Below, piece after piece: positions 2,973 to 63,145 of a stretch of 64,000 nucleotides of DNA (within the stretch, counting starts at the first letter, position 1; the number at the start of each line of letters is the position of its first letter). Position numbers and translations under genes: made by a program. The DNA lies in IMG/VR virus record IMGVR_UViG_3300028571_002266, positions 104,479-168,478 of that record. The stretch is one strand, 5' to 3'. The notes below the pieces were generated by a model, which saw only the letters and a program-made list of their open reading frames with translations, did not search any database and was not told the origin of the DNA. The stretch comes from a virus.

Positions 2973-3283
2973 ATCTTGATTTATTATTGTTGTCAAGGCA
3001 ATTTGAGACTGTCGAATTGCCGAAGGAAAAGAAATACCTCCTGAGATATTTTGAAAATCCAGTTCAGGAGGCTTTTCTTAAATATTTCTTTGTATTTGGT
3101 AATTATGTTAATTTTTGTGACCACACTGGTCATTTCGTGCAGAAAAAATGGTTAAAACATCTGCATGAAAAATTAAAAACAATTGAAAAAGCCCACAAAG
3201 ATGCCAGATCTAACTTTGACATGGCTGGACTTGTTGAAATTGAAAAAGGTGAATTCAAATTCAGTCGTCATCTTCCTAAATAG
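2933..3283 (+). CDS. hypothetical protein
   Basis: ORF track; start uncertain. Confidence 0.55.
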   Translation: MSALGINRRDRFLNLDLLLLSRQFETVELPKEKKYLLRYFENPVQEAFLKYFFVFGNYVNFCDHTGHFVQKKWLKHLHEKLKTIEKAHKDARSNFDMAGLVEIEKGEFKFSRHLPK

Positions 3284-3286
3284 TGT

Positions 3287-3529
3287 ATGGCACTAATATC
3301 ATTCGGCGATTGGCGTAAAAAATTTGATGAAGCAAGCCCTACTACAAGATTAAGGGCTGGAATTGAGGCGGGTAATTATCCCATGTCTGCTGGGGTGGCT
3401 ATGTCTCGATCCACACCAAGCCCATCTTTTGTAAAGAAGGCAATTGAAGAATTAGGATCACCTGAACATCCTAAAAGGAAAAATAAGACTAAAAAGAAAC
3501 GTAGGAATTCCAAGAAAAGGGAAAAATGA
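3287..3529 (+). CDS. small basic protein, putative internal head protein
   Basis: N-terminus ISFGDWRKKFDEA, Lys/Arg tail, TAAATA 4 nt before ATG. Confidence 0.55.
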   Translation: MALISFGDWRKKFDEASPTTRLRAGIEAGNYPMSAGVAMSRSTPSPSFVKKAIEELGSPEHPKRKNKTKKKRRNSKKREK

Positions 3530-3924
3530 TTTTTTTCAATGAATGGATGCAGGAAAGATTCGATGAGGCTAAAAAGTCTCGTCGCACCCCTGTTCCTCAT
3601 TCTGATGTTGAAAAATGGATGCGTTCTTTAGAGCTTCTCAAGAAAGATCTTGAGGAATTGCAGAAAGCCAAGAAGAATGCTGCCCAAAGATTTGCTAGAG
3701 AAGCAAAAATCAAGAAGGAAAAAGAAAAGAAGGCTAAAGATGCCAAGAAGTTAAAAAAGAAAAAAGATTCAGAAATAGATAAAAAATCTGAAAAAGAACC
3801 TGAAGTTGAGAAGAAAGATAAAAAACCTGAAGTCAAAAAATATGATTCCAAGAAAAATGTTGTATCTGATAAGTTCAGACAGATTAAGAGTCAAAGGCGT
3901 AAAAATAATAAGCCTAGAGACTAA
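3526..3924 (+). CDS. Lys/Glu-rich protein, putative internal head protein
   Basis: N-terminus MIFFNEWMQERFDEA; highly charged low-complexity body. Confidence 0.55.
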   Translation: MIFFNEWMQERFDEAKKSRRTPVPHSDVEKWMRSLELLKKDLEELQKAKKNAAQRFAREAKIKKEKEKKAKDAKKLKKKKDSEIDKKSEKEPEVEKKDKKPEVKKYDSKKNVVSDKFRQIKSQRRKNNKPRD

Positions 3925-3974
3925 TTATTTTTAAGTTGGCAGTCTCCACTATAATTAAATAGCGGAGATAGATC

Positions 3975-4421
3975 ATGAGTACTGAAAATATTTGCAACGA
4001 TGATTCCTTAGATCAATCTAAGGCAAAAAATGCCAGAGATGTTCTGAAAGGCATTATTGTTTCAGAATCAAATCTTGAAACATATTTAATTGCAGTAGCT
4101 GTTCATAAAGATTCATCCAAGAATTTTATCAATAGAATAAGTTGTAAGAAGGGCATACCTCTTGATGGATATGTTTATGATGCTCAATCAGACAGTTATT
4201 TCATAGAATGCACTGATTTTTTGCATGTAGGGGTAATTCCTGTTTCTTTTGTTGCTACTGCTAAAGATTCTTATTTTTGGAAAATGAATATACCTTTGCC
4301 TGAAGCTGTCATTAAAAAGTATTTGACTGAGATCCAAAAGAAGGATTTGAAAAACTTTAAGAGTCATTTTAGCTCTCAAGATTACATGATTAATTATGTT
4401 CAAATGGTTAATCCAAACTGA
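3975..4421 (+). CDS. hypothetical protein
   Basis: GGAG RBS, 148 aa. Confidence 0.6.
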   Translation: MSTENICNDDSLDQSKAKNARDVLKGIIVSESNLETYLIAVAVHKDSSKNFINRISCKKGIPLDGYVYDAQSDSYFIECTDFLHVGVIPVSFVATAKDSYFWKMNIPLPEAVIKKYLTEIQKKDLKNFKSHFSSQDYMINYVQMVNPN

Positions 4422-4459
4422 ATTCATGTTTTTCTGGTTCTTCTGCCATAAATAATTTC

Positions 4460-5287
4460 ATGGCATGCTCATCTACTGGAATAGGCTGTACTACTACAAC
4501 TGCAAAAAGTTGTCCTGACGAATATGGATGCGTTAGCGGCGTATGTGCCGATTTCATCATTCGTAGGCATGATACTAAACCATCTTTCAAGGTTAAGATC
4601 GAAGATTGCGATGGACCTCTTGATCTTACAGATCTTGTTCTTGAGGCCACAATGTGGGCCAAGGGGAAGCTTAAGGTTTCTCTTGATCAGAATGATTCAG
4701 TTATTGGTTTGGCTGATAATATTGGCTTTAATCAAGTAATGCAGGGCGATGTGATTATCATGGATCAGGCTAGATTGCCTGAGAAGATGCTTGTTGTTGG
4801 ATTTGATGAAGTAAATCGCCTCATTCGTGTCCAGAGAGGTTATCATGGAACCCCAGTGCAAAACTGGAGACGTGGCACAGGATTGAAAATCATTAAGTTT
4901 TCTAACGCAACTGCTACAACTGAAATGTTGTATCAGGACATCATTAACATTGATGGAACAACGACTAAGGATGTTTTAGTCGATAGTTTTTTAATTTATG
5001 ATTGGCAGAGTGAAGACACATGTCTTCCGGGTTGTTATTATTTGGAATTTAAGCTTTTGAAAATGGTGGTTTCTTTTGCTCTTGCTTATGATTCTTCTGT
5101 CCCAAGCAATCAAATTCCTAGTAATCTTTTGCCTGATGGAGTTATTCCGAGTTTTACTGATCCAAGTTTTATACCTTCCGATTTTGGTTGTTCTATGAAT
5201 CCACTTGTTGAATGGATAAGAAGGTTTCCTATTGATAAAGAAGGCTTTATAATTAAAATAACGAATACTTTTACGGCTGATGATTGA
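4460..5287 (+). CDS. putative virion structural protein
   Basis: FIIRRHDTKPSF...PLDLT and YDW...DT..PG.YYLEF resemble BppU-like baseplate/fibre domains; TAAATA upstream. Confidence 0.5.
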   Translation: MACSSTGIGCTTTTAKSCPDEYGCVSGVCADFIIRRHDTKPSFKVKIEDCDGPLDLTDLVLEATMWAKGKLKVSLDQNDSVIGLADNIGFNQVMQGDVIIMDQARLPEKMLVVGFDEVNRLIRVQRGYHGTPVQNWRRGTGLKIIKFSNATATTEMLYQDIINIDGTTTKDVLVDSFLIYDWQSEDTCLPGCYYLEFKLLKMVVSFALAYDSSVPSNQIPSNLLPDGVIPSFTDPSFIPSDFGCSMNPLVEWIRRFPIDKEGFIIKITNTFTADD

Positions 5288-5312
5288 CATCATAGAATTT
5301 AAGTCGTATTTT
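5284..5312 (+). promoter_or_regulatory. sigma-70 promoter for infC
   Basis: TTGACA-17bp-TATTTT. Confidence 0.55.
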
Positions 5313-5353
5313 TGTATAGGGTCTTTTTTATGTTGGAGCATGGATTTCACAAG

Positions 5354-5899
5354 ATGCAGCAAAACAAATTTCCTAGAGAGCGAAGCGAAGATCAAAACAG
5401 AGTTAACTGGCAGATAAGAGTGCCACAAGTTAGGGTTGTTCGTGAAGAAGAGCAACTTGGCATTATGGCTACTGATGAGGCAAGAAAACTTGCCATGGAC
5501 AATGGTCTTGATCTAGTAGAGATCGCTCCTACTGCGAAGCCTCCTGTTTGTAGGATTATGGATTATGGTCGTTATAAATACGAACTGAAAATCAAGAAAA
5601 AAGAAGCTGCAAAGAAGCAGCGTGAGTCACAAGTCCAGATAAAGGAAATTAGACTTCGTCCTGCTATTCAAGATCATGATATTGAAACAAAAATTAATCA
5701 GGCGAAGAATTTTCTTGAAGAAGGTTGTAAGGTTCAATTTTACCTTCAATTCAAGGGTTACCGTGAATTGAATCATAAAGAGCAGGGTTTCGCTGTTATG
5801 AAAAAAATTGTTGAAACAATGGAGCAATTTGGAGTCGTAGAGAAAAGACCTGCGATGGAAGGCAATCGAATTACATGCTTTTTTACTCCCAAAGTATAG
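5354..5899 (+). CDS. infC: translation initiation factor IF-3
   Basis: N..IR..QVRV, LDLVEIAPTAKPPVCRIMDYGRYKYE, KEIRLRP.I..HD. Confidence 0.96.
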   Translation: MQQNKFPRERSEDQNRVNWQIRVPQVRVVREEEQLGIMATDEARKLAMDNGLDLVEIAPTAKPPVCRIMDYGRYKYELKIKKKEAAKKQRESQVQIKEIRLRPAIQDHDIETKINQAKNFLEEGCKVQFYLQFKGYRELNHKEQGFAVMKKIVETMEQFGVVEKRPAMEGNRITCFFTPKV

Positions 5900-5910
5900 T
5901 GGGAAACATC

Positions 5911-7119
5911 ATGATTGATAATGTTTTGGCCAAAAAGGTCAACGATGTTCAGAATGAATTCAATCGTCGATTATATCATCATGTTCAACTAAGAGATAAT
6001 TCATCAGGTCCTCCTCTTTTTTTTAGAATGATTCATGATTCCAATCAGGATCTTCTTGAATTTGCATTTGGTCATTTTGGTAAGAATCTTGGTGATTTGA
6101 CTCATGTCCTAGACATGACTCATCCAGACCTTGTAACCATATTTGATGGTAGTTTTTCAGACGAGCATATTTTTTCAAAGCAATGTATAGAATTTTTGGC
6201 GATGGCACAATATGCTAAAAACAATGGAATGAGTCATATTTTCCCGTTATTGGGAAATCTTTTGATCAAAGAATCATTAGATAAAACTATTGTCAAAAAG
6301 ATTGATGGTGCAAATTACAATAAATCTTATGTTCGTCTTATTCTCGATTCAGAAGAGAGAGATGCAATAAGATTTTGCAAGAAAATGCAAGTTATTGATC
6401 TTCAGGCCTTTTATAAAAAAGGCGAAGAATCATGGAATGCACAGCCAGATTCTTTTAAGCAATTTATCAGATATGATTCTGCATATATGCGTGAATTAAA
6501 GCAAGCTGAAAAGAAAATGAAGAGATATGAGGATTTGGGTTGTCAAAGTCTTGCTTCTGAAATTTCTAAGAGTATTGAAGTTTTCCGTGAAAACATGGAA
6601 CAGGCATATTATGGATTCAATCGCATTACAATGACTAATGCTGCTATTATTTTAGCAAAATCAATGTCTTACAACTATAGTCCTTCCTGCCAGATTTCTG
6701 CTGGTGGGCATATAATGAAAATTGAAGCTCAGGTTACAATAAATCGTTCATTCTTCAAAGATATTTATTTTGATTCTTCCCTTGTAGTTGACGCAACTTA
6801 TCATTATGAGCCAAAAGTATATCCTTTCCATGAACTTAAAGATGTGGCTTCGGATGAAGTTCTCCAAACGATAAAAATGCTTGAAAACTTCCCAGAAGCA
6901 AACAATAAACCAATATTCGATCATTTTGGCGTTATTGTGCCTTCAATAGCTTATAGGAATAAAATGTTTAAGAATGAGAAAGGTATATTGCAGGATTATG
7001 CCGTTTTAGAAGATTGTCAAAAAGAAATGGACAAAATGTTCATCAGGAATAAATGTTTTTATCCGATAATTGTTGGCGAGAAAGATGGAAAATGCTTTTT
7101 TATATGTTATTGGACTTGA
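5911..7119 (+). CDS. hypothetical protein
   Basis: long ORF, no family recognised. Confidence 0.7.
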   Translation: MIDNVLAKKVNDVQNEFNRRLYHHVQLRDNSSGPPLFFRMIHDSNQDLLEFAFGHFGKNLGDLTHVLDMTHPDLVTIFDGSFSDEHIFSKQCIEFLAMAQYAKNNGMSHIFPLLGNLLIKESLDKTIVKKIDGANYNKSYVRLILDSEERDAIRFCKKMQVIDLQAFYKKGEESWNAQPDSFKQFIRYDSAYMRELKQAEKKMKRYEDLGCQSLASEISKSIEVFRENMEQAYYGFNRITMTNAAIILAKSMSYNYSPSCQISAGGHIMKIEAQVTINRSFFKDIYFDSSLVVDATYHYEPKVYPFHELKDVASDEVLQTIKMLENFPEANNKPIFDHFGVIVPSIAYRNKMFKNEKGILQDYAVLEDCQKEMDKMFIRNKCFYPIIVGEKDGKCFFICYWT

Positions 7120-7128
7120 GGTTGCGTA

Positions 7129-7380
7129 ATGATTTATAATTTAACGAAGGAAGAACTTCTGGAATTTGCACATGTGATTTACGAGCAATCTGTGAATGGT
7201 TATTTAGATCTGAAAGAAAGTACTTGTCACAAGTTGCTAGTAAATTTTTTAGCAAACAAAAAAACTTCTATTCCAGATACTAATGTAAACATGAGTACTA
7301 ATTTTGTGGATACAAATCAGATTTTTAATTCTGATGTTTTCACGGTAACAGAAAGTTTCATCATCAGTCAAACTCAATGA
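7129..7380 (+). CDS. hypothetical protein
   Basis: GAGG RBS, 83 aa. Confidence 0.55.
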   Translation: MIYNLTKEELLEFAHVIYEQSVNGYLDLKESTCHKLLVNFLANKKTSIPDTNVNMSTNFVDTNQIFNSDVFTVTESFIISQTQ

Positions 7381-7404
7381 GTTTGTAAATTTACGGGGAT
7401 AATT

Positions 7405-7776
7405 ATGTCGAAGAGTAAGATTCTCACTCCTATGGGTTCAGTTTATGATTCTACTATTATTGGTGGTGGATCAAAAGTTCCTAAAATCAAATCTGTCAAG
7501 CCAACTGGTTCGCAGGTTCTAATTGAATTCTTGACATCTCAGGAAATGCTTGGGACAAGTCTAGCTGTCAATGAAAAAACAGATTTGAAAGTTCCTTTGC
7601 AAGGCTATGTTCGCTCTGTAGGCCCTAACTTCAAATCATCAGATTATGGGTTTAATATAGGCGACAGAGTCACTGTTTCAGGTCCCGGTATTCATGTTCC
7701 TAATTGGGACAATATTCACCGTGATCGCTTCCTTATGGAACCTTCTTCAATTAAAGGCGTGATCATAGAAGAATGA
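7405..7776 (+). CDS. groES: GroES-like co-chaperonin
   Basis: VKPTGSQVLIE, G.VRSVGP, IGDRV, LMEPSSIKGVI follow the GroES pattern. Confidence 0.75.
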   Translation: MSKSKILTPMGSVYDSTIIGGGSKVPKIKSVKPTGSQVLIEFLTSQEMLGTSLAVNEKTDLKVPLQGYVRSVGPNFKSSDYGFNIGDRVTVSGPGIHVPNWDNIHRDRFLMEPSSIKGVIIEE

Positions 7777-8828
7777 AAGACTACTATGTCGTTCTAGGTA
7801 TTCCTAGAAATGCATCTAAAGAAGATATTGTTAGGGCATACCGCAAGGGTGCCCAAACACATCATCCTGACCGTAATCCCGGCGACTCAGAAGCCGAAAA
7901 GAGATTTCGTGAAATTCAGGAAGCGTATGAGATATTAAACGATCCAGAAAAACGTGCTGAATATGACAGTGGAGGCCACTCCATGCATTTCAGGATGCGT
8001 GGATTTGAGGGTAATCCTTTCAGTGGTTCATTTGGTGATATTTTCCAGAATAGTTCTTATCGTGGAAGAAATCTAACAGTAAGATTAGAAATTGATTTAT
8101 CAGAAGCTTATAACGGTTGTAACAAAGAAATAATTATAAAAGTTAAAAATACATGCACGACATGTAAGGGTCAAGGCCAGATAAGTAATGAATCATGTGC
8201 TAATTGTAATGGTCAAGGATTCACTAAAGTAAATAATGCTCCTTTTGAATTCAGAACAAATTGTCCAATTTGTAATGGTTTGGGAAAGATAAATCCAATC
8301 ACATGCGTTGATTGCAGTGGTTCTGGAATGCTTTCTGGATATAAGGAAAAAAAGATACAGGTTCAAATTCCATGTGGAGTTGACAGTGGAATTAATCTGA
8401 GAATGCCCGGTCAAGGAGAGGAATCAATCAGGGGAGGAAATCCCGGTGATTTAATTATTCATGTCTTGGTTAAAGAACATGAATATTTTCAAAGAGAAGG
8501 AATAGATCTTCTTGTTGATGTCCCTCTTTCCTTTTCCCAGTTGACATTTGGCTGTGAAGTCGAAATACCTACAATTTGCGACGAGACGCTTACTTGTAAA
8601 ATTCCATTGGGAACACAAAGCCACGCCAAGTTTAAGCTTGGAGGCAAAGGAATGAAACTTCCAAATGGTGTTTATGGTGATATGATTGTTACTGTAAAAG
8701 TTGAGATACCAAAAGGAATAACAGGTGAATATAAAGAAGCAATTTTGAAACTACAGGATTTTGAAAAAAATAACTTTGGATCTAGAAGACAAAGATGGCA
8801 AAAAATTGTAGGCAAAAAAGATAAATAA
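7773..8828 (+). CDS. dnaJ: DnaJ chaperone (class A)
   Basis: J domain with HPD, four CxxCxGxG repeats, C-terminal domain. Confidence 0.96.
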   Translation: MKDYYVVLGIPRNASKEDIVRAYRKGAQTHHPDRNPGDSEAEKRFREIQEAYEILNDPEKRAEYDSGGHSMHFRMRGFEGNPFSGSFGDIFQNSSYRGRNLTVRLEIDLSEAYNGCNKEIIIKVKNTCTTCKGQGQISNESCANCNGQGFTKVNNAPFEFRTNCPICNGLGKINPITCVDCSGSGMLSGYKEKKIQVQIPCGVDSGINLRMPGQGEESIRGGNPGDLIIHVLVKEHEYFQREGIDLLVDVPLSFSQLTFGCEVEIPTICDETLTCKIPLGTQSHAKFKLGGKGMKLPNGVYGDMIVTVKVEIPKGITGEYKEAILKLQDFEKNNFGSRRQRWQKIVGKKDK

Positions 8829-8848
8829 AAGTTAACTAGGAGAAGAAA

Positions 8849-9052
8849 ATGAATGCTTTGCACAATAAGTTTTTTTGGGTAGTCGCCGCTCTTACCGCAG
8901 CACTTTTAATTTTTGGAATTGGCGGTAAGTTATTTGTGGACAAGGTTGCTGATGTTGTTATTGAAAAGCTGAAAAAAGACTATAGCCCTTCTCCTTACGG
9001 TCCCGGTATTGATCCTGATAAGATTGATGTTACTAAAATTAAGAAAAATTAA
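8849..9052 (+). CDS. small membrane protein
   Basis: AGGAG RBS; one TM helix. Confidence 0.6.
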   Translation: MNALHNKFFWVVAALTAALLIFGIGGKLFVDKVADVVIEKLKKDYSPSPYGPGIDPDKIDVTKIKKN

Positions 9053-9399
9053 ATAACGTGACAGCTTTTTATTTGAGAAGGAGCGAGGCTGTTGTCATGC
9101 GACAGCCTTAACATTTTTATTACCATTGTTTTTCCAGTTTCTGGTTGGCCCTTTATCCTTCTAAATTCATCATGTGTAAAATAAAGTTTTGTCCCATCAC
9201 CTAGTTGAATATAAATAGGGTTCTTTTTTCGTATGATGATGTGAATTTTTGCTCTTTTTTCTATTACTGGTAAGTCTAAATCAATATTTGGCAAAATATA
9301 AGATTTTGCCCAATCAAAATTTTCTGAAACAGAAAAAGCCCCAATTCTATCTAGGCAATCTCTTATATTGATAAATTCTTGAAAATTACTGCTCATCAT
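9049..9399 (-). CDS. hypothetical protein
   Basis: TAAATA 4 nt before ATG; N-terminus SNFQEFI. Confidence 0.6.
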   Translation of the reverse strand: MMSSNFQEFINIRDCLDRIGAFSVSENFDWAKSYILPNIDLDLPVIEKRAKIHIIIRKKNPIYIQLGDGTKLYFTHDEFRRIKGQPETGKTMVIKMLRLSHDNSLAPSQIKSCHVI

Positions 9400-9416
9400 T
9401 ACTTATTTAGTTTACT

Positions 9417-9719
9417 ATGTCTGGAAAATACAAGATTGTTTCATCTTCCAATATTATCACGATGGTCATCAATTTCAAGGATGAGAATGATGAAAATAGA
9501 ACTGTTAATGTTGGAGTTGATTATTTGATGAGCAAAGTATATTTTTTCGACGAAATTTCAAAAAAAATAGATTATGATGAACTAGAAAAGACTATTCTAA
9601 ATCATATCATTCCTGATATATGCGATTTACCTGAAATACCAGAAGATTTATTGATCAAGGTTGATGAAATTCGTCAGGGCAAGTTTGACAATGAAAGTCT
9701 TTTTAACATGCAAGGATAA
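9417..9719 (+). CDS. hypothetical protein
   Basis: ORF track. Confidence 0.55.
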   Translation: MSGKYKIVSSSNIITMVINFKDENDENRTVNVGVDYLMSKVYFFDEISKKIDYDELEKTILNHIIPDICDLPEIPEDLLIKVDEIRQGKFDNESLFNMQG

Positions 9720-9721
9720 AG

Positions 9722-10096
9722 ATGGCAAATAATAATACAGAAAGATTTGGATTTAGTGTATCTGCTGGAAACAATAGGCCAGATCCATGTAACTTGAGAA
9801 TTATGACTTTGGAGCGTGTCAATAAAATCATAGAAAATAAAAGATACGAGCCAAAACTAACTTCTCAACTTAAGAAAATGGCATCTTTGTATCCACAACA
9901 AGCATTGGAAAATTTTGTTCAAAATTTTGATCATCATTTACTAAAGGCAAGACAAGCGATAAGAATAAGTAAGCCAACTACATCGCCTGTAGAAGTCACT
10001 GAGGTTGCTGAAATAACTGAAGTCACTGAGGTTGCTGTAGAAGAAATTGTCACTCACGAGAATTCACATGCCCCGTCAGTCGAAGAATTTGAGTAA
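9722..10096 (+). CDS. hypothetical protein with EVTEVA repeat
   Basis: 19-bp direct repeat GAAGTCACTGAGGTTGCTG at 9992-10010 and 10019-10037. Confidence 0.6.
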   Translation: MANNNTERFGFSVSAGNNRPDPCNLRIMTLERVNKIIENKRYEPKLTSQLKKMASLYPQQALENFVQNFDHHLLKARQAIRISKPTTSPVEVTEVAEITEVTEVAVEEIVTHENSHAPSVEEFE

Positions 10097-10571
10097 AGAA
10101 CTACCTTTGCCGGGATCAAAAATTCCAGTAAAGATTGTAGCAGATAGCCCACAGTTTGTGCCGAAATATAAAACTTCTGGTGCGGCAGCAGCAGACTTAG
10201 TTGCTAATATTCCCACAAATGATGCTGGTCATAATTTTGTCAGTGTCATGCCAAGCCAGACAGAAGTGATCGATTGTGGATTCAGCATGTCTCTTCCTCA
10301 AGGCTGGGAAGCGCAAATCAGAGCAAGAAGCGGTCTTGCAGTTCAAGGTCTACAAGTAACCAATGGACCCGGAACTATCGATAGTGATTTTACCGGAAGA
10401 ATCAAAGTAATTGTCAATAGTGCAAGCAAAAACATCATCAGGATCACTCATGGTGATCGTGTAGCACAGATTTTAATAAAACCTGTGTGGCAAATTGATT
10501 GGGTTGAAGTTGATTCTTTAGAAGTTACTGAGCGTGGTGATAAAGGTTTTGGTTCAACAGGAAAAAATTGA
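10047..10571 (+). CDS. dut: trimeric dUTPase (start may be later)
   Basis: AAADL, RSGLA, GTIDSDFTG, GDRVAQ, RGDKGFGSTG. Confidence 0.95.
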   Translation: MSLTRIHMPRQSKNLSKELPLPGSKIPVKIVADSPQFVPKYKTSGAAAADLVANIPTNDAGHNFVSVMPSQTEVIDCGFSMSLPQGWEAQIRARSGLAVQGLQVTNGPGTIDSDFTGRIKVIVNSASKNIIRITHGDRVAQILIKPVWQIDWVEVDSLEVTERGDKGFGSTGKN

Positions 10572-10578
10572 GGTTAAA

Positions 10579-10794
10579 ATGAAAATATTTGCTGTAATTA
10601 GCGTTGCCAGACAAGTAGACGGAGAATGGGTCTGTGTCAAAACAGAAAAAGCATTCAAGAGTTCTTCTTCGGCAGAAAAATATGCAAATAATTTAGCAAG
10701 AAATTATGCAGAAAAGATCACTACTGCTAGTGGTGTAATGAATTGTATTTGTGAAAGAGGAGTTTTTGAAATAGATGTTGATGAACAGGAATAA
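10579..10794 (+). CDS. hypothetical protein
   Basis: GAGG RBS before ATG 10579. Confidence 0.55.
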   Translation: MKIFAVISVARQVDGEWVCVKTEKAFKSSSSAEKYANNLARNYAEKITTASGVMNCICERGVFEIDVDEQE

Positions 10795-10832
10795 TCAACA
10801 TTAACCCCATTATAATTAACTGAGGAGAATCC

Positions 10833-11570
10833 ATGGCCACACAGAATAATTACAATCCACTTGAAGGCGACCGTCCAGAAATGACGGTAAAGCTTCACGA
10901 AAATTCTGACGATCATATTTCAATTATTGTCGTCCATAGAGATAGACCTGAATATTTGAACATTTGCCTTCAGTCAATTGCAGTCACCAGCTTCAACAAC
11001 AACTACGAAATCATCGTTGTCGATAACGGAAGCGGCAAGGAATCACAAGAATTCCTTAAGGATATCGAAGGGGAAGTCAAGGTCGTAAAGAATGAGAAGA
11101 ATCTTTACTGGTCAGCAGCTTGTAATAAAGGCGTACAGGCTGCTGATAAAAACAGTAAATATTTTATCTTCATGCATTGTGACATCGTAGTAATCAATCC
11201 TGCTTGGATTGACTTGCTTGTAAATGTGTCAGAAGCACAACATTCAGGATTCGTTGGGGTTGACACTCAATCCTATATGATGGGAAATCAAAAGGTTGAT
11301 TTCCTCCAAGATCATATTACCTTGATAACAAGAGAAGCTTGGAGTGATATTGGTCCTTGGCCAGAACAACTTCCACAAATAGGCCCATCTTTCATTCTCA
11401 CAATCAGAGCTCAACAGAAGGGCCATAAGCCTCAGATTATGAAAAATCCAATCATCCATCACTACAAGATTTTTAGCATGGATATTTCAGAATATGAAAG
11501 AATGACAGAGCAGGCGATGACAACATTACCAAAACTAATGACTGATGTTTACTCAAAGGCTGTTTCATGA
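10833..11570 (+). CDS. glycosyltransferase family 2
   Basis: ISIIVV, YEIIVVDNGS, N.G, FMHCD. Confidence 0.85.
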   Translation: MATQNNYNPLEGDRPEMTVKLHENSDDHISIIVVHRDRPEYLNICLQSIAVTSFNNNYEIIVVDNGSGKESQEFLKDIEGEVKVVKNEKNLYWSAACNKGVQAADKNSKYFIFMHCDIVVINPAWIDLLVNVSEAQHSGFVGVDTQSYMMGNQKVDFLQDHITLITREAWSDIGPWPEQLPQIGPSFILTIRAQQKGHKPQIMKNPIIHHYKIFSMDISEYERMTEQAMTTLPKLMTDVYSKAVS

Positions 11571-12220
11571 AACAGGTCGTAAGGACCGATAAATTCGCAA
11601 TTTTTGATGATGTGTTCAAACAAGATTTGTTTGACACATTGGTTAGACATTTTTGCGAAATTGATTTCGTAAAACATAATCAAAACTTGATTAAAGTTTG
11701 GAAAATAAGCGATGGAGAAATTTTTGGTGGAGAATCTCATAGCTCCAAAAAATTTCCCTTTAACAGTCCTTTGGATTTTGTCCATAATACTGTTTACTAT
11801 CTTGCTAAAAATAATATTCAAGATTTGGTTGGAAAAGAAGGAGAAGAATGGACAGAAATAATTTATCGTCCTTACATTTACCCAGTAGGAACAAAAATAT
11901 CTTGGCATAATGATTCAGGTTATACTGCTGCATGTATTTTTTATTGCCATAGAGAATGGAGTCCTTTTTGGGGTGGCGAATTAATGATTGCAAACACTCC
12001 AAATAGCGAACAATATCCAGAATTGAAATCTAGCCCAGACGATCTTTTTTCTAAAGACTATACTAAACCTTTTTTGAATTACTTTGGATTTGGTCAATAC
12101 ATCACACCTATTCCAAATAGAATGGTTTTCACTAAAGGTGGAGTTTGGCATGGGATTAACAGAGTCGATGTGGCAGCAGGAGATAACCTTAGATTTTCAA
12201 TTGTAGCTTTCTTCAAGTGA
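11567..12220 (+). CDS. 2OG-Fe(II) oxygenase (prolyl-4-hydroxylase-like)
   Basis: WHND, WGGEL, PNRMVF, WHGI, RFSI. Confidence 0.85.
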   Translation: MKQVVRTDKFAIFDDVFKQDLFDTLVRHFCEIDFVKHNQNLIKVWKISDGEIFGGESHSSKKFPFNSPLDFVHNTVYYLAKNNIQDLVGKEGEEWTEIIYRPYIYPVGTKISWHNDSGYTAACIFYCHREWSPFWGGELMIANTPNSEQYPELKSSPDDLFSKDYTKPFLNYFGFGQYITPIPNRMVFTKGGVWHGINRVDVAAGDNLRFSIVAFFK

Positions 12221-12224
12221 GAAA

Positions 12225-12704
12225 CTAATCTTTCTTTGTATTTTCTAAATTCTTGACAAAATTAATCCAATCTTCATTAACCCATATAACTGGTGAATGG
12301 GTGCAGTATGCTGCTGCATAACTCATGCAGAAAATTTCTTCTGCATTTTGTTGCAAGGCATGTTTTTGTTCCTTATGTGGGAATTTATCTATTTGCGTTT
12401 GCTTAGTCTTCTTGACTAATTCTTCCCATTTCTTCTTCAAATCTTTGGTCATAATATATTCCCAGACCAAATGAGCAATTTCATGCAATGTTGTGAACGC
12501 TCTGCTGTAGTTCCATGGAGCAGCTACAACGATCCTGTTTTTGAAAATATAACCAATATGATCATTATCGCCGTCTAAAGTGTTGCCACTTGTATATTTG
12601 AATTTATATCCATTGAGAAGATCACGATGTTTCTTAGGAAGAGAAGAAATTAACTTCTCAACATCTTTTTGTTCTTCAGATTCAAGAAAAGTTTTGAATT
12701 CCAT
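12225..12704 (-). CDS. HExxH zinc-metallopeptidase-like protein
   Basis: TLHEIAH plus downstream EEIFC; N-terminus MEFKTFLESEE. Confidence 0.6.
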   Translation of the reverse strand: MEFKTFLESEEQKDVEKLISSLPKKHRDLLNGYKFKYTSGNTLDGDNDHIGYIFKNRIVVAAPWNYSRAFTTLHEIAHLVWEYIMTKDLKKKWEELVKKTKQTQIDKFPHKEQKHALQQNAEEIFCMSYAAAYCTHSPVIWVNEDWINFVKNLENTKKD

Positions 12705-12788
12705 CTTTTTCTCCCAAGATATAAATGATTCAACCATATTATTTAACAATAAATTCGACTATATTGTTTTCAAATTCCTAATACATAA

Positions 12789-13031
12789 CATCACAATGGA
12801 AATGTTCAATATGATACTTCAGCGACATCTTTGGCAAGTGGAAGTGGTACTGATGTCATAGGTGGTTATGTGAATAAACAAGGCAGTTTGGATATTACTA
12901 GCATAAATCAATTCAACTTCCAGATTGGAAGGTTTTTGGATGGCACGAGTGAAGTTATCACAGTTGCTTTTGCCCCAACATCAGCAAACACTAAGGTTTT
13001 GGCTGATTTGGCTTGGTTTGAAATTGTTTGA
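12789..13031 (+). pseudogene. orphan C-terminal fragment of a phage structural-type gene
   Basis: coding-like frame HNGNVQYDTSATSL...LADLAWFEIV starts right after TAA 12786 with no ATG or RBS. Confidence 0.45.
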
Positions 13032-13044
13032 TAATTTGGTAAAA

Positions 13045-13078
13045 AAAACCACTCAAATATTTTTATTTGAGTGGTTTT
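13045..13078. terminator. bidirectional intrinsic terminator
   Basis: AAAACCACTCAAATA-4nt-TATTTGAGTGGTTTT between convergent ORFs. Confidence 0.7.
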
Positions 13079-13096
13079 ACTGTAAAAAATAAATTT

Positions 13097-14041
13097 TTAG
13101 ACTATTGCAGATGTGTCAACACTCTTCCATGCTCCGCCAACATAGACCTCTATGTTGCCTGTCGCTGTGTTGTAGCAGAACATACCGTTAGTTGCAGTGC
13201 CAGCAGCAGCGTTTCTTGCAGTATTGTCTGCATAGACTGGCATTCTTGGCATAGAATTCAAATAAATATGACCATTTCTACCAGCACCAGAATTAGTGCC
13301 ACAAGTAAGGTTCATATCACCAGCACGATCTGTGCCAACGCTATTACCAGAAATCAAGGTTAAATCGCCACCACGACCATCAACAGTGCCATCTCCAGCT
13401 TCAATAGCAATATCTCCACCATCTATATCTGTAGTGGCTAATGAATTACCAGCATATATAAATATGTCACCTGCTTCTGGATCATCTCCAGTGCTACCAT
13501 CTCCATTGCCACTATCGCCAGCATAGATGTAAACATCACCAGCTTGACCATCATCGCCAGAATCTCCAGCTTCTAATCTAATATCGCCACCATCGCTGTC
13601 GCCAATGCCAGTAGATGCATTGCCACCATATATGAGTACATCTCCTGCATCGGAATTATCGGCAGCATCTGCATTGCCACCTCTAATCGTTACATCTCCA
13701 GCGTTTGCATCTGGACCATCTCCAGTATTGCCAGCTTCGATGTTGATGTTTCCGCCTTCACCATTACCGTTAGCGTGACCACCTTTTATGAAAACACTAC
13801 CACCATCAGCATCGATACCATTAGCCGCTAATGGATATCCATTTCCACCTTTGATAGTAATATTTGAAGCACTAATGGAATTCACTATTCCGTCTGCTGT
13901 GGAAATTGTTATATTCGATGAAAAGTTTTCAAAAATTTTACCCTCTTGTATGTTTACTTTTTTTACTACACCGTTTACAATTTTCGGTAAAGATTTTTCT
14001 GCCGATCCTATTCCTGTTCCTTCTTGACTTGTAGCGCCCAT
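13097..14041 (-). CDS. Gly-rich repeat fibre/structural protein
   Basis: about 9 repeats of (G/A)GD.x.I.xG; C-terminal R.A...NGM..YNT.T..IEVY.GGAW fibre motif. Confidence 0.65.
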   Translation of the reverse strand: MGATSQEGTGIGSAEKSLPKIVNGVVKKVNIQEGKIFENFSSNITISTADGIVNSISASNITIKGGNGYPLAANGIDADGGSVFIKGGHANGNGEGGNINIEAGNTGDGPDANAGDVTIRGGNADAADNSDAGDVLIYGGNASTGIGDSDGGDIRLEAGDSGDDGQAGDVYIYAGDSGNGDGSTGDDPEAGDIFIYAGNSLATTDIDGGDIAIEAGDGTVDGRGGDLTLISGNSVGTDRAGDMNLTCGTNSGAGRNGHIYLNSMPRMPVYADNTARNAAAGTATNGMFCYNTATGNIEVYVGGAWKSVDTSAIV

Positions 14042-14132
14042 ATTTTCTCCTTAATAAAATAAAATAAAACTATTGTCTCTATATTTATTGTTTTGCATTA
14101 AAAAATAAATTACTGCATTGCTTAAATAAGGC

Positions 14133-14867
14133 ATGGCAAAACCAAGAAAAAAACCCGTCAAGAATGAAAAGACCAACACAACACCAGCACAGCATGCTAG
14201 TGGTAAAAAGCCATTTCATGTTGAGTTTATGAATGCTGCTCAAAAAATGGCTTGGGGTGCATTTGATCAGCATGATGTTTTGTTTTTGCTAGGAGCTCCC
14301 GGTACGGGGAAGTCACACCTCGCTTGCGCCTTTGCAATTAGTGAGATTTTAGCTAAAAGAAAAGAAAAAATTATTATAACAAGACCAACCATTGAAGCTG
14401 GTGGCCGAGGACTTGGGTTTTTACCGGGCTCGGCGGAAGAAAAATTAAACCCTTATATGCTTCCTCTTTTTGATTGTATGGATAGGTGTTTGGGAACATT
14501 TTCTCCACAGAGGGACATAATCAATAAGAGTGTAGAGCTTTCTCCTCTTCAGTTTATGCGTGGTAGAAGTTTTCATGATTCAGTTTGTATTCTTGATGAA
14601 GCTCAGAATTGCAATTATGCTGAAATTAAATTGTTTCTTACAAGATTTGGACAGAACAGTAAAGTAATCATTACTGGTGATCCGATGCAAAGCGATTTGC
14701 CTTGGAAGGACAGGGCTTTGATGAATGTTGTTGATAGGTTGTCAAGCTTAAAGGGAGTTGGAATAATAAACTTCAAGGCTAATTCTATTGTTCGACATCC
14801 ATTGATTGCATCGATTCTTGAGAAGTTGGAAGAGGATAAGGAGGAGAGTGGCACTAGTAGTTCCTGA
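14133..14867 (+). CDS. phoH: PhoH family ATPase
   Basis: GAPGTGKS, ITRP, LGFLPG, FMRGRSF, ILDEAQN, GDPMQSD, IVRHP. Confidence 0.95.
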   Translation: MAKPRKKPVKNEKTNTTPAQHASGKKPFHVEFMNAAQKMAWGAFDQHDVLFLLGAPGTGKSHLACAFAISEILAKRKEKIIITRPTIEAGGRGLGFLPGSAEEKLNPYMLPLFDCMDRCLGTFSPQRDIINKSVELSPLQFMRGRSFHDSVCILDEAQNCNYAEIKLFLTRFGQNSKVIITGDPMQSDLPWKDRALMNVVDRLSSLKGVGIINFKANSIVRHPLIASILEKLEEDKEESGTSSS

Positions 14868-15258
14868 TCTTGGCGAAATTGAACTTTTGACTAAATTGTT
14901 AAAAAACACTGCTGATACAGAGGATTATATTCTTAAGCTTTATAAGAATAATTACACTCCAATTGCAGCAACTGTTGTTGGTAGTTTTACTGAGGCTGAT
15001 TTTACAAATTATGTAGATAAGACCATTGCAAGATCAGATTGGGCCACACCTTCAACTGTAAGTAATAAAGCTGAATCTAGTGTTGCGACACAATCATGGA
15101 CATGTGGTGTTACTACCAACACAATTTATGGTTATTATGTAGTTGGCGCAACTTCTGGTGTTTGTTTGTGGGCGGAAGAATTTGCGGCAGCAAGAGTTCT
15201 TGCAGACGGAGATATTCTTAATCTTACTCCAAAATTTAATCTTTCTAGCGCCAATTAA
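14848..15258 (+). CDS. putative virion structural protein
   Basis: AAGGAGG before GTG 14848; LKLYKNNYTP, EADFTNY, IYGYYV, LWAEEF pattern of phage tail-associated proteins. Confidence 0.55.
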   Translation: MALVVPDLGEIELLTKLLKNTADTEDYILKLYKNNYTPIAATVVGSFTEADFTNYVDKTIARSDWATPSTVSNKAESSVATQSWTCGVTTNTIYGYYVVGATSGVCLWAEEFAAARVLADGDILNLTPKFNLSSAN

Positions 15259-15281
15259 TATTCTTAATTAGTAAATAGGTA

Positions 15282-16064: not shown

Positions 16065-16092
16065 TTTAATTCATTTGAGCATTAAATATGTT

Positions 16093-17316: not shown

Positions 17317-17352
17317 TTGTTGGATTTTCTGTTTGGCCAATAAATAGTTTAT

Positions 17353-18756: not shown

Positions 18757-18765
18757 GAGAAAATT

Positions 18766-19062: not shown

Positions 19063-19078
19063 TCAAAAAAAAACAGTC

Positions 19079-19145
19079 TTGTTTTGCCCCTCTGAAAAGT
19101 TTATGATGCTGCTTCATGGAAATCCGTCCTCCGCTGACGGACGGA
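19079..19145 (+). promoter_or_regulatory. sigma-70 promoter followed by hairpin element
   Basis: TTGTTT-17bp-TATGAT, then GAAATCCGTCCTCCGCTGACGGACGGA at 19119. Confidence 0.6.
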
Positions 19146-19157
19146 AGAGGTATGGTA

Positions 19158-22032: not shown

Positions 22033-22037
22033 TTATT

Positions 22038-46051: not shown

Positions 46052-46052
46052 A

Positions 46053-55928: not shown

Positions 55929-56831
55929 CTAATCATCAATGGAAAGTCCTAATTCTTCGACTTTTTCCCTGATCCATTCCAACCCTTTTTCCTTGAGTTG
56001 TCGGACTCTTTCTTTCGTCACTCCCACCTCATCACTGATTTGTTCGAGTGTCATTTTGTCACGTCCATTTACGCCGAAATATTTTTCGAGTACATATGCT
56101 TGCCTTACTCGATCAGTGCCTATATTCTCACGGACGAGCATTCCAATCAGTCTCTTAATCAGACATTGTCTTGATTCATGGTCCTTTTCATCAGCCTCTC
56201 CAGTGCCTCTATCTTCGATCATTTCTGCACGAGAATCATCAAGAAATGAAACTTTTTCAGATTGATTCATCTTGGTCTTAGCGTCTCTGAAGAAATTCTT
56301 CTTCACGACCCAAGTTGCATATGTGCTGAATCTATGTCCAAGTGTCCAGTTGAAATAGTCAACAGCCTTCAAAACATCGAAATAAGCATCGCTTAACATT
56401 TGTTCAGTGCTGTTTCCATCTTGCATTACATTTTTATGTTTCATGATTTGAGTTGCTAGTCGGAAATTGCATTCAGCGATTTGGTTCCTGACAGCAAGAG
56501 CTTTTCGGTATAAGTGATTGGCAAGTTTATGTTTTGCTTCTAAATGTTTGCAATTGACATTGGAAAATAAATTTTTTGCACGATATTTCAAAAAATTAAG
56601 CTTTTTGAAGAGATGTTGTTCTTGTTGGAAATTGAGGAGAGCAGATTGGTAGCAAGGAAGCATTTCTGGGTTTATTTTATCGGTTTTAATTTTTTGGACT
56701 TTGCTTAGACTTTTCTGAAATTCTTTGTATTCTGGAATTCTTTCCATGATTTTATTACGCTGATTGATATCATCGAAGCTGGCATGGTGAAAGAATTTAA
56801 TTTTTTCATGAACACAATCAGAATTATTCAT
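55929..56831 (-). CDS. sigma-70 factor, RpoD/RpoS-like, planctomycete-type
   Basis: EQHLFKKLNFLKY, RNQIAECNFRL, G.RFSTYATW, TLEQI..EVGVTKERVRQL. Confidence 0.9.
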   Translation of the reverse strand: MNNSDCVHEKIKFFHHASFDDINQRNKIMERIPEYKEFQKSLSKVQKIKTDKINPEMLPCYQSALLNFQQEQHLFKKLNFLKYRAKNLFSNVNCKHLEAKHKLANHLYRKALAVRNQIAECNFRLATQIMKHKNVMQDGNSTEQMLSDAYFDVLKAVDYFNWTLGHRFSTYATWVVKKNFFRDAKTKMNQSEKVSFLDDSRAEMIEDRGTGEADEKDHESRQCLIKRLIGMLVRENIGTDRVRQAYVLEKYFGVNGRDKMTLEQISDEVGVTKERVRQLKEKGLEWIREKVEELGLSIDD

Positions 56832-61187: not shown

Positions 61188-61624
61188 ACATAAAAATTAT
61201 AATCAATTAGTTGTCTTGAGATATATGGAGTTATCTTAAAATCTTTAGCTTCGGGAAAATAATCTGCAACTCTCATCCAAGATTCTTTTCTTTTGAAACT
61301 TCTGACGACTAAGTTTTTAGAATGTTTTTTTGCCATTTTCAAAAGACCATTTGCTAAATCTTTGGTGAGATTCATAACTCCATCGCCGATAATATTGACA
61401 AAATCTTGATTGTTATCTATCCAATCACCTTTTATGACATTTGGACCTTTGAGCCAAGGATCTAAATCCATCTGATAATCTGATATGCAAACCAGCTTTC
61501 TTGTGCATCCAAGAAGCAATGTAGATCCATCTAACATATATTCTTTATATATTTTTGCATCATGCGTGTTAGGATTAAGGGGATGAGGCTGTTGACTGCG
61601 CCAATATGCTTGATTTGCTTTCAT
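61175..61624 (-). CDS. hypothetical protein, methyltransferase-like
   Basis: TLLLGCT, GDW, IIGDG. Confidence 0.45.
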   Translation of the reverse strand: MKANQAYWRSQQPHPLNPNTHDAKIYKEYMLDGSTLLLGCTRKLVCISDYQMDLDPWLKGPNVIKGDWIDNNQDFVNIIGDGVMNLTKDLANGLLKMAKKHSKNLVVRSFKRKESWMRVADYFPEAKDFKITPYISRQLIDYNFYVWRF

Positions 61625-61695
61625 AATTTGACCAAAATATTTTTGTTGACAGATACATATATTGTATTGTGAAAACTATAAAAAAGGCAACGAAA

Positions 61696-62112
61696 ATGAG
61701 CAATAACAACCTGATGCCACCTATTGGATATAACGAAGCAGCATCATCGGGTGAAAAATCAATATCAATTCTTTTCAGTAAAATTTTTGAATCTCGTGAT
61801 TTTGCTCATTATGCACATTTGCAATCAAAGTCTTATAGCCAGCACAAAGCACTTGGTGGCTTTTATGAATCAATTGTTGATTTGGCTGATACGATGTTTG
61901 AAACATATTCTGGGAAATATGGACTTCTTTCATTCAAAATGAATTCTGTACCAACTAATCAGGATGTAATATCTTATTTTGAATCATTCGCTAAATTTGT
62001 AGAAGGCTCTCATGATATGATTGATAAGAAAGACACATTTATCCATAATCAATTAGATGAAATTTCTACCGAAGTTTATCATCTTATTTATAAGCTTAAG
62101 AATTTGAAATAA
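61696..62112 (+). CDS. ferritin/Dps-like DUF5856 family protein
   Basis: HLQ..SY.QHKAL..FY....L.D...E.Y.GKYG, YKLK.L. Confidence 0.75.
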   Translation: MSNNNLMPPIGYNEAASSGEKSISILFSKIFESRDFAHYAHLQSKSYSQHKALGGFYESIVDLADTMFETYSGKYGLLSFKMNSVPTNQDVISYFESFAKFVEGSHDMIDKKDTFIHNQLDEISTEVYHLIYKLKNLK

Positions 62113-63135
62113 TTATTCTACTTCTTGATAATAAACTGTGCGAAGAGGAGTTGGGTTTAATTCTAAATCTGTTGATTCTTTTATGAACAAAAGAATTGCA
62201 GATAAGCTTTTTTCTACAGATGGTCCTACTTCTGCGTATTCAACAAATTGGCGGCTTTTTTTGCCCCACATCATTTTGATACTACAAGATCCAGCTGAGT
62301 AAAACCAATCTGTGTCTGTCCCTGATCCATGTGCGTTTTCAAGTCTTTCAGTTTTATATCCATTCATTCCAACCATTTTGTTTATAAGATCGTTGATTTT
62401 ATTGCCATCTTCCTTTTGGCAAATCTCAGGAGCATAAATCGATTCGCCAAACGTATGCATATTGATTACAGATTTGAATTTCATGTGATTCATCAAACAC
62501 ATTGCAAGCTTAATTGGCGAAGGAGAAGGGTTGTTAGGTCTTTGAGAATATGGAAAACTTGTTGAAGGATTGAACCCTTCAATTTTATCAGATTTTAGAT
62601 ATGTATCTGGAGAAATAACAGGAATAAAGTAAATATCACGATTATCAAGAACCCATGTCATATCATCATTTTTGCCGTATCCATTTAATATCTTTTCCAT
62701 CAAATGCATTGTGGCGAGTATGGCATATTCTTCATCGCCATGTAAACCAGCCTGAATAAGAACTTTTGGTTTGTCTTTTGTACCCATCCTGAAATAATTA
62801 CATTCTGTGCCATTTGCTGTTTTGCCATATGAAACAAAATCAGTAAAGTCAGGAGCTTCTTTATTCCACTTTTTAAGTTGATTGATTATATCGCTTTGAT
62901 TTTTATAATTTTGAGCTACATCACTGATTTGCAGATCTGAAACTTTTTTAGGTAAATACTTATCGATAATTTTTTCAGCAATCTTTTCTATTTTTTCTTT
63001 GGCGTAGTTTTCAGCTTTGTTTTTAATTATTTTTCCAGCAATTTTTTGCAATACATTTTTTTTGTATAAAACAATTCCCTCTACTGCGAAGAGCAGAGTG
63101 ATCAGGGCCAAAGTAATCAACCTGAAATTGCTCAT
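62113..63135 (-). CDS. membrane-anchored M14 zinc carboxypeptidase
   Basis: HGDE, YFIPVISPD, NMHTFG, G...DW. Confidence 0.78.
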   Translation of the reverse strand: MSNFRLITLALITLLFAVEGIVLYKKNVLQKIAGKIIKNKAENYAKEKIEKIAEKIIDKYLPKKVSDLQISDVAQNYKNQSDIINQLKKWNKEAPDFTDFVSYGKTANGTECNYFRMGTKDKPKVLIQAGLHGDEEYAILATMHLMEKILNGYGKNDDMTWVLDNRDIYFIPVISPDTYLKSDKIEGFNPSTSFPYSQRPNNPSPSPIKLAMCLMNHMKFKSVINMHTFGESIYAPEICQKEDGNKINDLINKMVGMNGYKTERLENAHGSGTDTDWFYSAGSCSIKMMWGKKSRQFVEYAEVGPSVEKSLSAILLFIKESTDLELNPTPLRTVYYQEVE

Positions 63136-63145
63136 GCATTATATA

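Follow-up and report, generated by a model that had tools for sequence, protein, structure and literature searches.

A TANATA box fused to start codons as a probable promoter class, with putative leaderless transcripts, in a clade of huge phages

Introduction

Leaderless phage messages and T4-type late promoter boxes are each already known. The T4 late box, TATAAATA, spans positions -13 to -6 and is read by gp55 together with gp33 and the gp45 clamp (PMC1524935), and its upstream positions are relaxed in relatives of T4, as in CTAAATA in Aeh1, NATAAATA in S-PM2 and ATAAATA in the jumbo phage CBB (PMC1524935, PMC5259590). The Thermus phage phiYS40 has a promoter class with mostly leaderless middle and late transcripts (Sevostyanova et al. 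2007, as given in PMC3594737), and in Deinococcus-Thermus and Actinobacteria a -10-like box lies at a fixed short distance from starts that have no Shine-Dalgarno (SD) sequence, with a spacing requirement and in coexistence with SD-led genes (PMC12340547, PMC4633059). Here, an arrangement of this kind is described in a window of 64 kb, meaning the whole stretch of DNA analysed, which is the right-hand part of the IMG/VR record IMGVR_UViG_3300028571_002266 (168,478 bp). The element in question is the hexamer TAAATA, or more generally TANATA, located 4-6 nucleotides (nt) before ATG start codons without an SD, and it is interpreted as a probable promoter element.

The original prediction for this DNA assigned the box to T4-type late promoters, and the comparison is reasonable in part: TANATA agrees with the last six bases of TATAAATA when N is A, there is no canonical -35 element, the short distance to the start fits, and a small sigma factor consisting of region 2 only is present in the clade. 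The part that does not hold is gp55 itself, which was not identified in this fragment; nor were gp33 or a T4-type clamp, for which no search was made. There are further differences from T4, in that any base is accepted at position 3 of the box, the TA at the head of the T4 box is not kept, an A/T-rich partner is located approximately 14 nt upstream, the replicase is of the DnaE type rather than gp43, and about half of the boxes are fused to an ATG, an arrangement for which T4 shows no enrichment (16 versus 13 and 10 versus 5 relative to controls).

Promoters of phiYS40 are reportedly read by the host primary sigma factor. A link between leaderless phage mRNAs and the level of IF3 has been proposed in that phage (PMC3594737), but its host phylum commonly uses leaderless mRNAs, and IF3 goes down there whereas the phage described here adds an IF3 gene. 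In Deinococcus-Thermus and Actinobacteria the motif is TANNNT and is read by the primary sigma factor, whereas TANATA has A as its last base, is invariant at five positions and has a spacer to the ATG that is shorter by 1 nt. The fused layout is also present in HTVC008M (KC465899.1), a cultured T4-like myophage of SAR11 Pelagibacter, in which TAAATA-N5-ATG occurs 14 times against 4 in the control. All seven of the sites checked in that genome (within 6269-19458) are annotated starts of coding sequences, including those of virion genes (head completion, baseplate, tape measure and DNA end protector) and of accessory genes. HTVC008M differs in being a true T4-like phage (Kyanoviridae) with a host in which SD use is weak, and in having a spacing of almost always 5 nt and a box of the form TAAATA(G). 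The literature searched contained no description of the fused layout in HTVC008M, nor of a strict TANATA fused to the ATG of approximately 8% of genes across a huge-phage clade, with leadered copies and a candidate minimal sigma factor.

Sequences and annotation

CheckV completeness of the 168,478-bp record was 39%, indicating that it is a fragment and that the complete genome would be roughly 400 kb in size. The fragment has a GC content of 36% and a good SD at about half of its genes, and encodes tail-fibre proteins, a DnaE-type polymerase, a DnaB-like helicase, a UvsX-like recombinase and many accessory proteins, with one tRNA-Arg in the window. Syntenic IMG/VR contigs were found by protein-guided searches and five were fetched whole (G001-G005, 44-259 kb). 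These were combined with the present fragment and with LR756511.1, a published huge phage of 595 kb, into a seven-genome pool of 2,102 called genes, to which all pooled figures below refer. LR756511.1 is a distant relative, with a DnaB 35% identical to that of the fragment, and has in common with it a block consisting of bS21, a gene for a protein of 275 amino acids (aa) and IF3. A nucleotide search of phage records with window positions 14000-20000 returned no match, a generic scan of positions 1-20000 for sigma-70 promoters and terminators performed no better than on shuffled sequence, and no related loci were found for the 405-aa gene at 41232 or for a 334-aa box gene at genome position 62615.

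The box and its placement

As a word, TAAATA is not over-represented in the window (77 occurrences, 78 expected). When all 4,096 hexamers were scored at spacers of 3-7 nt before candidate ATG starts in this genome, it was observed 10 times against 0.7 expected (P = 4e-9) and ranked second, all other top words being SD variants, while TATATA at the same spacers was observed 5 times against 0.33 expected. The distances from TAAATA to ORF-opening ATGs are non-random, their histogram having a spike at a spacer of 4 nt, with none of 14 permuted hexamers spiking at any spacer (counts of 0-5). The same placement recurs in five relatives, with observed and expected counts of TAAATA of 9/1.0, 7/0.64, 8/0.44, 8/0.64 and 4/0.09, and with TATATA additionally present 25 times in G001 against 0.71 expected. 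In LR756511.1, TAAATA was observed 34 times against 2.8 expected and TATATA 23 times against 1.8, with a spacer peak of 27 sites at 4 nt and 34 at 5 nt. Across the pool, 166 of the 2,102 genes (about 8%) begin with a fused box, and the spacer histogram holds 68, 78 and 28 sites at 4, 5 and 6 nt, respectively, compared with 3-5 at spacers of 0-3 nt. In orthologous genes the flanks have diverged around a retained box and spacer, with occasional exchanges between TAAATA and TATATA. A chance origin of the box placement is excluded by the spikes in the spacer histogram, the score in the hexamer scan and the recurrence in relatives.

The anatomy of the element was determined by in-silico mutagenesis, i.e. 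by counting every single-base variant at spacers of 4-5 nt. Positions 1, 2, 4, 5 and 6 of the box are strict and position 3 is free, with counts of 37 for TAAATA (1.4 expected), 31 for TATATA (0.7 expected), 7 for TACATA and 5 for TAGATA, all well in excess of expectation, which defines the motif as TANATA. At the last position A is required rather than T, given that TAAATT (2 observed, 2.4 expected) and TATATT (3 observed, 1.7 expected) are at expectation, which distinguishes TANATA from the TANNNT -10 hexamer of primary sigma factors. The base preceding the box is preferentially C or A and rarely T, and the two bases before it are not TA. Further upstream, an AAATTT-like element is located approximately 14 nt from the box, visible as a patch at -20 to -15 from the box with about 90% A/T, compared with 64% in 993 control boxes (P = 1e-5). 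There is no TTGACA-like -35 signal 16-18 nt upstream of the box, and at several sites a terminator occupies the place of a -35.

The box is not limited to the fused position. In the zone 12-45 nt upstream of 861 SD-led genes of the pool, the top hexamers were TATATA (66 versus 7.0 expected) and TAAATA (72 versus 13.0 expected), with the canonical TATAAT (61 versus 14.5) ranked below both. TAGATA and TACATA were enriched 3.4-3.9-fold in the same zone, compared with 0.8-1.9-fold for control words that also begin with a stop codon. The profile of distances from box to start has a peak at 4-6 nt (174 sites), a plateau of approximately 10 sites per nt at 12-36 nt and approximately 2.7 per nt beyond 45 nt. 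About half of the box copies are leadered, lying 12-45 nt ahead of an SD-led gene. The initial claim of a leaderless class thus survives in so far as the box is fused to SD-less ATGs, and fails in so far as it is not specific to them. An earlier reading from this genome alone, by which the box was confined to the fused position, was overturned by the pool; in this genome alone, TAAATA is no more intergenic than permuted hexamers.

A box at variable distance before genes with their own SD points to a transcription signal, and the surroundings of the fused sites were also recorded. A strong intrinsic terminator immediately precedes 10-12 of 76 fused sites, and the distance from the start of its T-run to the box is a regular 17-24 nt, as at window position 42507. 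A divergent gene start lies within 60 nt at 15 of the 76, and some divergent pairs are only 14-29 nt apart (221029/221044, 165710/165725 and 203787/203817 in G001, and 32619/32635 in G002), sharing one palindromic TATATA or two back-to-back boxes. Judged by these contexts, the box is a predicted promoter element and not an RNA signal.

Start geometry and alternative readings of the box

Bacterial RNA polymerase prefers start sites of the form Y(-1)R(+1). A pyrimidine directly precedes the ATG in 83% of fused sites compared with 51% of SD-led starts (P = 1e-7), and G does so in only 1-4%, a pattern that fits transcription starting on the ATG itself. GTG and TTG starts at spacers of 4-5 nt numbered 11, compared with 27 expected at the rate of SD-led genes (P = 4e-4) and 8.6 from background alone, and such exclusive use of ATG would be expected if a 5'-terminal AUG were needed. 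The position of the T4 box leaves five bases between box and +1, and the distance from TANATA to ATG is mostly 4-5 nt. Taken together, these features make it most likely that transcription begins at the A of the ATG or directly beside it.

These genomes also have canonical TTGACA-17-TAnAAT promoters placed directly before ATGs, as in TTGACA-17-TACAAT-atcgtc-ATG in G001, with a modal spacer of 5-6 nt. This is one base longer than for the box, as expected for a box ending at -7 rather than at -6. Within the window, TTGATT-17-TACAAT-ttatt-ATG is located at 22004-22040 on the plus strand (ATG at 22038), and TATAAT-tttac-ATG, with a 5-nt spacer, at 31015-31028 on the minus strand (ATG at 31017), both of which are kept in G003 and G004. 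Fusion of unmistakable sigma-70 promoters to ATGs is independent evidence for leaderless expression in the clade, and for its extension beyond the TANATA class.

Primary sigma factors need T at -7, which counts against the alternative that the box is a variant -10 of the host primary sigma factor, the class then consisting of normal early promoters of the host type that are placed next to start codons, as in Deinococcus-Thermus or Actinobacteria. The existence in these phages of canonical TTGACA-17-TAnAAT-N5-6-ATG leaderless promoters speaks for this alternative, as does the fact that -10 motifs adjoining open reading frames (ORFs) are a known mode of expression (PMC12340547), but it appears quite unlikely given that the last base must be A, with neither TAAATT nor TATATT enriched, that there is no -35 at 16-18 nt and the upstream element is instead AAATTT-like and at 14 nt, and that the box is separated from the ATG by 1 nt less than in the canonical class. 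Action of the box within RNA, with UANAUA at -10 to -5 serving, without an SD, in ribosome binding or as an enhancer, possibly recognised by S1 or by bS21-bearing ribosomes, would suit its location where an SD would sit, the 18 of 76 sites that lie within 15 nt of an upstream gene on the same strand, and the presence of bS21 and IF3 genes in the phage, but is highly improbable in view of the top enrichment of the box 12-45 nt before genes with their own SD at variable distance, its fixed distance after strong terminators and its presence in divergent pairs 14-29 nt apart, the partner element approximately 14 nt further upstream, and a pyrimidine at -1 that is a signature of transcription start rather than of translation.

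Box sites within the window

All ten of the sites named in the original prediction are present as a box, 4-6 nt and an ATG, and the SD duplex energy is above -2 kcal/mol at every one of these starts, i.e. none has an SD. An eleventh site, TAAATA, lies outside the window ahead of the 334-aa gene at genome position 62615. Two of the ten are located in the region around bS21 and IF3. TAAATA at 3277-3282 (plus strand, 4-nt spacer) precedes the ATG at 3287 of an 80-aa gene (3287-3529), and its box and spacing are retained in the orthologues of G002, G003 and G004 with different flanks. TAAATA at 4449-4454 (plus strand, 5-nt spacer) precedes the ATG at 4460 of a 275-aa, Cys-rich gene (4460-5287) located between bS21 and IF3, the orthologues of which (51-76% aa identity) retain (c)aTAAATA-N4-5-ATG, with TATATA-N5-ATG instead in G001 and LR756511.1.

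On the minus strand, TAAATA at 9404-9409 (4-nt spacer, ATG at 9399) precedes a 116-aa gene; G003 and G004 retain this box, at a spacing of 7 nt from the aligned ATG. The ATG at 9399 and the divergent plus-strand start at 9417 are only 17 nt apart. The plus-strand gene at 9417 lacks an SD and also a box on its sense strand, and 7 nt upstream of it there is only the reverse complement (TATTTA) of its neighbour's box (window positions 9400-9416). The other minus-strand site is TATATA at 63140-63145 (4-nt spacer, ATG at 63135), which precedes a 340-aa gene (62113-63135).

The remaining six sites are on the plus strand. TAAATA at 14123-14128 (4-nt spacer) precedes the ATG at 14133 of phoH (14133-14867; Pfam PhoH, 7e-60), which is divergent from a gene ending at 14041 and whose box is present in G004 with different flanks and a 5-nt spacer. 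TAAATA at 15272-15277 (4-nt spacer, ATG at 15282) precedes a 260-aa gene (15282-16064), and TAAATA at 16083-16088 (4-nt spacer, ATG at 16093) precedes the gene for the CCA-adding enzyme (cca, 16093-17316; Pfam PolyA_pol, 3e-25; PHROG tRNA nucleotidyltransferase, 4e-40), for which the start is ATG 16093 and not TTG 16075 as called from the longest ORF. TAAATA at 17341-17346 (6-nt spacer, ATG at 17353) precedes a 467-aa gene (17353-18756), of which the upstream 80 nt are approximately 90% identical in relatives and the protein just 47%. TATATA at 33643-33648 (5-nt spacer, ATG at 33654) precedes a 138-aa gene (33654-34070), with TATATA-aagttc-ATG at the orthologous site of G004. Finally, TAAATA at 42507-42512 (5-nt spacer, ATG at 42518) precedes a 100-aa gene and follows an intrinsic terminator consisting of a hairpin at 42465-42489 (free energy -16 kcal/mol) and a T-run at 42490-42500, starting 17 nt before the box; the T-rich tail and the box are retained in G001-G004. 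An ORF from TTG 42446 would cross the strong terminator hairpin, which indicates that the start is ATG 42518.

The 260-aa gene and cca form two adjacent single-gene cassettes (window positions 15261-17271, with cca within 16070-17271) that are present or absent between close relatives, L007 (89% nt identity) lacking the cca cassette only and L011 and G004 lacking both. Each cassette carries its own TAAATA box, with the indel junctions located just upstream of the boxes. The cca ORF ends in 46 nt of pre-existing intergenic sequence, which the relatives without cca also have.

Leadered copies are also found in the window. TATATA at 20204-20209 (plus strand) is followed by a 40-nt leader with an SD and by the ATG at 20250 of a small sigma factor gene, and other leadered boxes are located at 3956, 8822, 26636, 27378 and 39712 and, on the minus strand, at 51502 and 52842. 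Downstream of the TATATA box, the leader of the small sigma gene (20204-20249) contains a repeated TTAACT motif (taactgcttaactttcaaaa), which is retained in G002-G004 although the protein is just 26-46% identical, and which may mark a regulatory leader.

Gene content does not show the box genes to be late. Fused boxes in the window belong to phoH, cca and proteins of unknown function, and those in G001 include three HNH homing endonucleases and two glycosyltransferases. Tail-fibre genes, which alone represent the virion in this fragment, have an SD and lack a box within 40 nt of the start codon. By contrast, a virion structural protein (phrog_1645, 3e-69) is the product of one fused gene in LR756511.1, and virion genes are among those with the fused layout in HTVC008M. 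Pfam searches for sheath, baseplate-J and HK97-capsid proteins yielded nothing usable for a test of lateness, and terminase was found just in G005 and LR756511.1.

Sigma factors

Two sigma-70-family factors are encoded in the window, both of which are also present in relatives. The first (20250-20792, plus strand, 180 aa) is FliA/SigF/ECF-like and contains regions 2 and 4 (TIGR02479, 1e-18; Sigma70_r4, 36 bits), and the second (55929-56831, minus strand, 300 aa) is RpoS/RpoD-like, likewise with regions 2 and 4. No multisubunit RNA polymerase genes (PF00562, PF00623) were found in the six fragments, totalling about 770 kb. In the search for a gp55-like sigma factor, the gp55 family phrog_234 gave only a 14.5-bit match on this fragment, to region 2 of the 300-aa factor, and phrog_12791 gave nothing; a sigma factor consisting of region 2 only was found just in the distant LR756511.1 and in other contigs. 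The factor in LR756511.1, encoded at 464260-464820, is 186 aa in length, matches Sigma70_r2 (2e-7) and phrog_234 (3e-7), and has no region 4. Its family extends over 264 IMG/VR contigs at 55-84% identity, some of them from samples that hold this phage's nearest relatives, with similar GC content. Region 2 without region 4 is the architecture of gp55 and would fit a promoter without a -35. This gp55-like factor is the leading candidate for the reader of the box and not a finding, owing to the thin homology and to the location of the gene on records other than this one.

A 124-aa paralogue of the region-2-only sigma factor is encoded in LR756511.1 at 400520-400950, directly after a terminator, and is preceded by TATAAT-atggt-ATG, so that a canonical leaderless promoter appears to drive a gp55-like factor. 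Promoters of sigma-28 have the consensus TAAAGTTT-N11-GCCGATAA. Comparison with these was suggestive in the two-block layout and in the presence of a small FliA-like sigma factor in the window, but the -10 halves share just ATAA and the distance to the start misfits, and sigma-28 was retained as a lead only.

IF3, bS21 and translation

The bS21 gene (598-885, plus strand) is SD-led, with a start conserved in relatives, and matches Pfam Ribosomal_S21 (8e-13, above the cut-off) and the PHROG annotation 'ribosomal protein S21' (8e-7). The IF3 gene (5312-5899, plus strand) is not a box gene, and encodes both canonical domains in full length (Pfam IF3_N, 1.5e-29, 1-70/70; IF3_C, 8.5e-29, 1-86/86). 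Both factor genes are classed as SD-led, and the IF3 start is ambiguous between ATG 5330 and ATG 5354: a good TTGACA-17-TATTTT promoter (5285-5313) is followed by ATG 5330 without an SD, and a GGAG is located 15 nt upstream of ATG 5354. In bacteria, an unusual start codon that serves autoregulation is frequent in infC. The phage IF3 gave no indication of the host, since its identity to the IF3 proteins of Myxococcota, Gemmatimonadota, Bacillota and others was approximately 50%.

All six relatives encode IF3, and five of them (four fragments and LR756511.1) encode bS21. The block of bS21, the 80-aa box gene, the 275-aa box gene and IF3 is syntenic in G002-G004, which are the three closest relatives and the only ones in which the 80-aa gene was found, and the core of bS21, the 275-aa gene and IF3 (window positions 598-5899) recurs in G005 and LR756511.1 (325993-332357). 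The 275-aa protein has no match in Pfam or PHROG, and AlphaFold2 with eight orthologues gave a pLDDT of 32.

Published effects of these two factors run opposite to the proposal that the phage copies retune ribosomes toward leaderless mRNAs. Excess IF3 inhibits leaderless translation in vivo and in vitro (PMC9031893), ribosomes without bS21/uS2 translate leaderless cI better (PMC10491246), and during phiYS40 infection IF3 is lowered and IF2 raised, for leaderless mRNAs (PMC3594737). A coupling in the reverse direction, in which phage IF3 and bS21 would favour SD-led translation and turn the leaderless class down, acting as a switch between the two halves of the gene set, agrees in direction with the published effects of IF3 and bS21 (PMC9031893, PMC10491246), with the SD-led state of both factor genes and with their co-occurrence with the box class, but is unlikely, being purely inferential and faced with a single box that drives both leadered and leaderless genes without a clean separation of classes. 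Also doubtful is a programme of two layers, in which the region-2-only sigma factor would write a regulon that is nearly half leaderless while phage IF3 and bS21 balance leaderless against SD-led translation; if true, both promoter and ribosome would set the timing of expression, and the core of bS21, box gene and IF3 would be a control module.

The coupling originally predicted, in which the two phage factors shift host ribosomes in favour of leaderless messages in a joint takeover of transcription and translation, is very unlikely. The co-occurrence of IF3 and bS21 in the clade is in its favour, as are the two box genes located between them and HTVC008M, which bears the fused layout and is reported to encode bS21 as well. 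Against it stand the inhibition of leaderless translation by excess IF3 (PMC9031893), the better performance of bS21/uS2-less ribosomes on leaderless cI (PMC10491246), the lowering of IF3 and raising of IF2 by phiYS40 (PMC3594737), the possession of both canonical domains in full by the phage IF3, and the SD-led state of half of the box promoters and most of the phage genes. Canonical early-type promoters also yield leaderless starts, which implies that leaderless mRNAs must be translated before IF3 and bS21 accumulate.

Discussion

TANATA is probably the -10-like element of a major promoter class in this huge-phage clade, giving leaderless transcripts when fused to the ATG. In this interpretation, the box would act with no TTGACA-type -35 and with a weak AAATTT-like partner approximately 14 nt upstream, and RNA polymerase would initiate about 5-6 nt after it, as at T4 late promoters. 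In about half of the copies the box would lie 12-45 nt upstream of an SD-led gene, and in the other half (approximately 8% of genes, including ten in the window) 4-6 nt before the ATG, in which case the transcript would start at or within 1-2 nt of the AUG and be translated as a leaderless mRNA. The reader would be a phage sigma factor acting on the host core polymerase, for which the best candidate is the clade's region-2-only, gp55-like sigma factor, with the two sigma-70-family factors of the window as alternatives. The fused layout would then amount to a self-contained expression unit of about 35 bp, possibly suited to accessory or mobile carriers such as phoH, cca, homing endonucleases, glycosyltransferases and the strain-specific indel cassettes.

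Several points weigh against this interpretation. The upstream A/T element is weak, at 0.2-0.4 bit per position, and may in part represent the T-runs of terminators. The modal 4-nt spacer of this genome misfits a rigid T4 geometry, under which +1 would fall on the U of the AUG, implying that the start is flexible by 1 nt. The start points are predicted from sequence statistics, and gene calls were made with a simple ORF scorer written for the analysis, so that some starts may be wrong. Profile searches found no convincing gp55 homologue in this 39%-complete fragment or in the five related fragments, the region-2-only factor resembles gp55 only weakly, scoring about 30 bits against the family profile, and an hhalign comparison of its family with the single T4 gp55 sequence was not significant. 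Lastly, the capacity of the host to translate leaderless mRNAs is an assumption, as IF3 carries no taxonomic signal.

For the annotation of these phages, about 8% of the genes of the clade, including those of a published 595-kb genome, start without a ribosome-binding site, and gene finders that expect an SD would place such starts wrongly, as illustrated in the window by TTG 16075 in place of ATG 16093 and TTG 42446 in place of ATG 42518. For a large group of uncultured phages, the results suggest a promoter model consisting of an AAATTT-like element, approximately 14 nt, TANATA, 4-6 nt and the ATG, with a candidate minimal sigma factor as its reader. A portable promoter-plus-start unit of roughly 35 bp may thereby travel with accessory and mobile genes. 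In a clade with both IF3 and bS21 genes and many putative leaderless messages, the question of why phages carry translation-initiation genes becomes testable, with HTVC008M as a cultured model.

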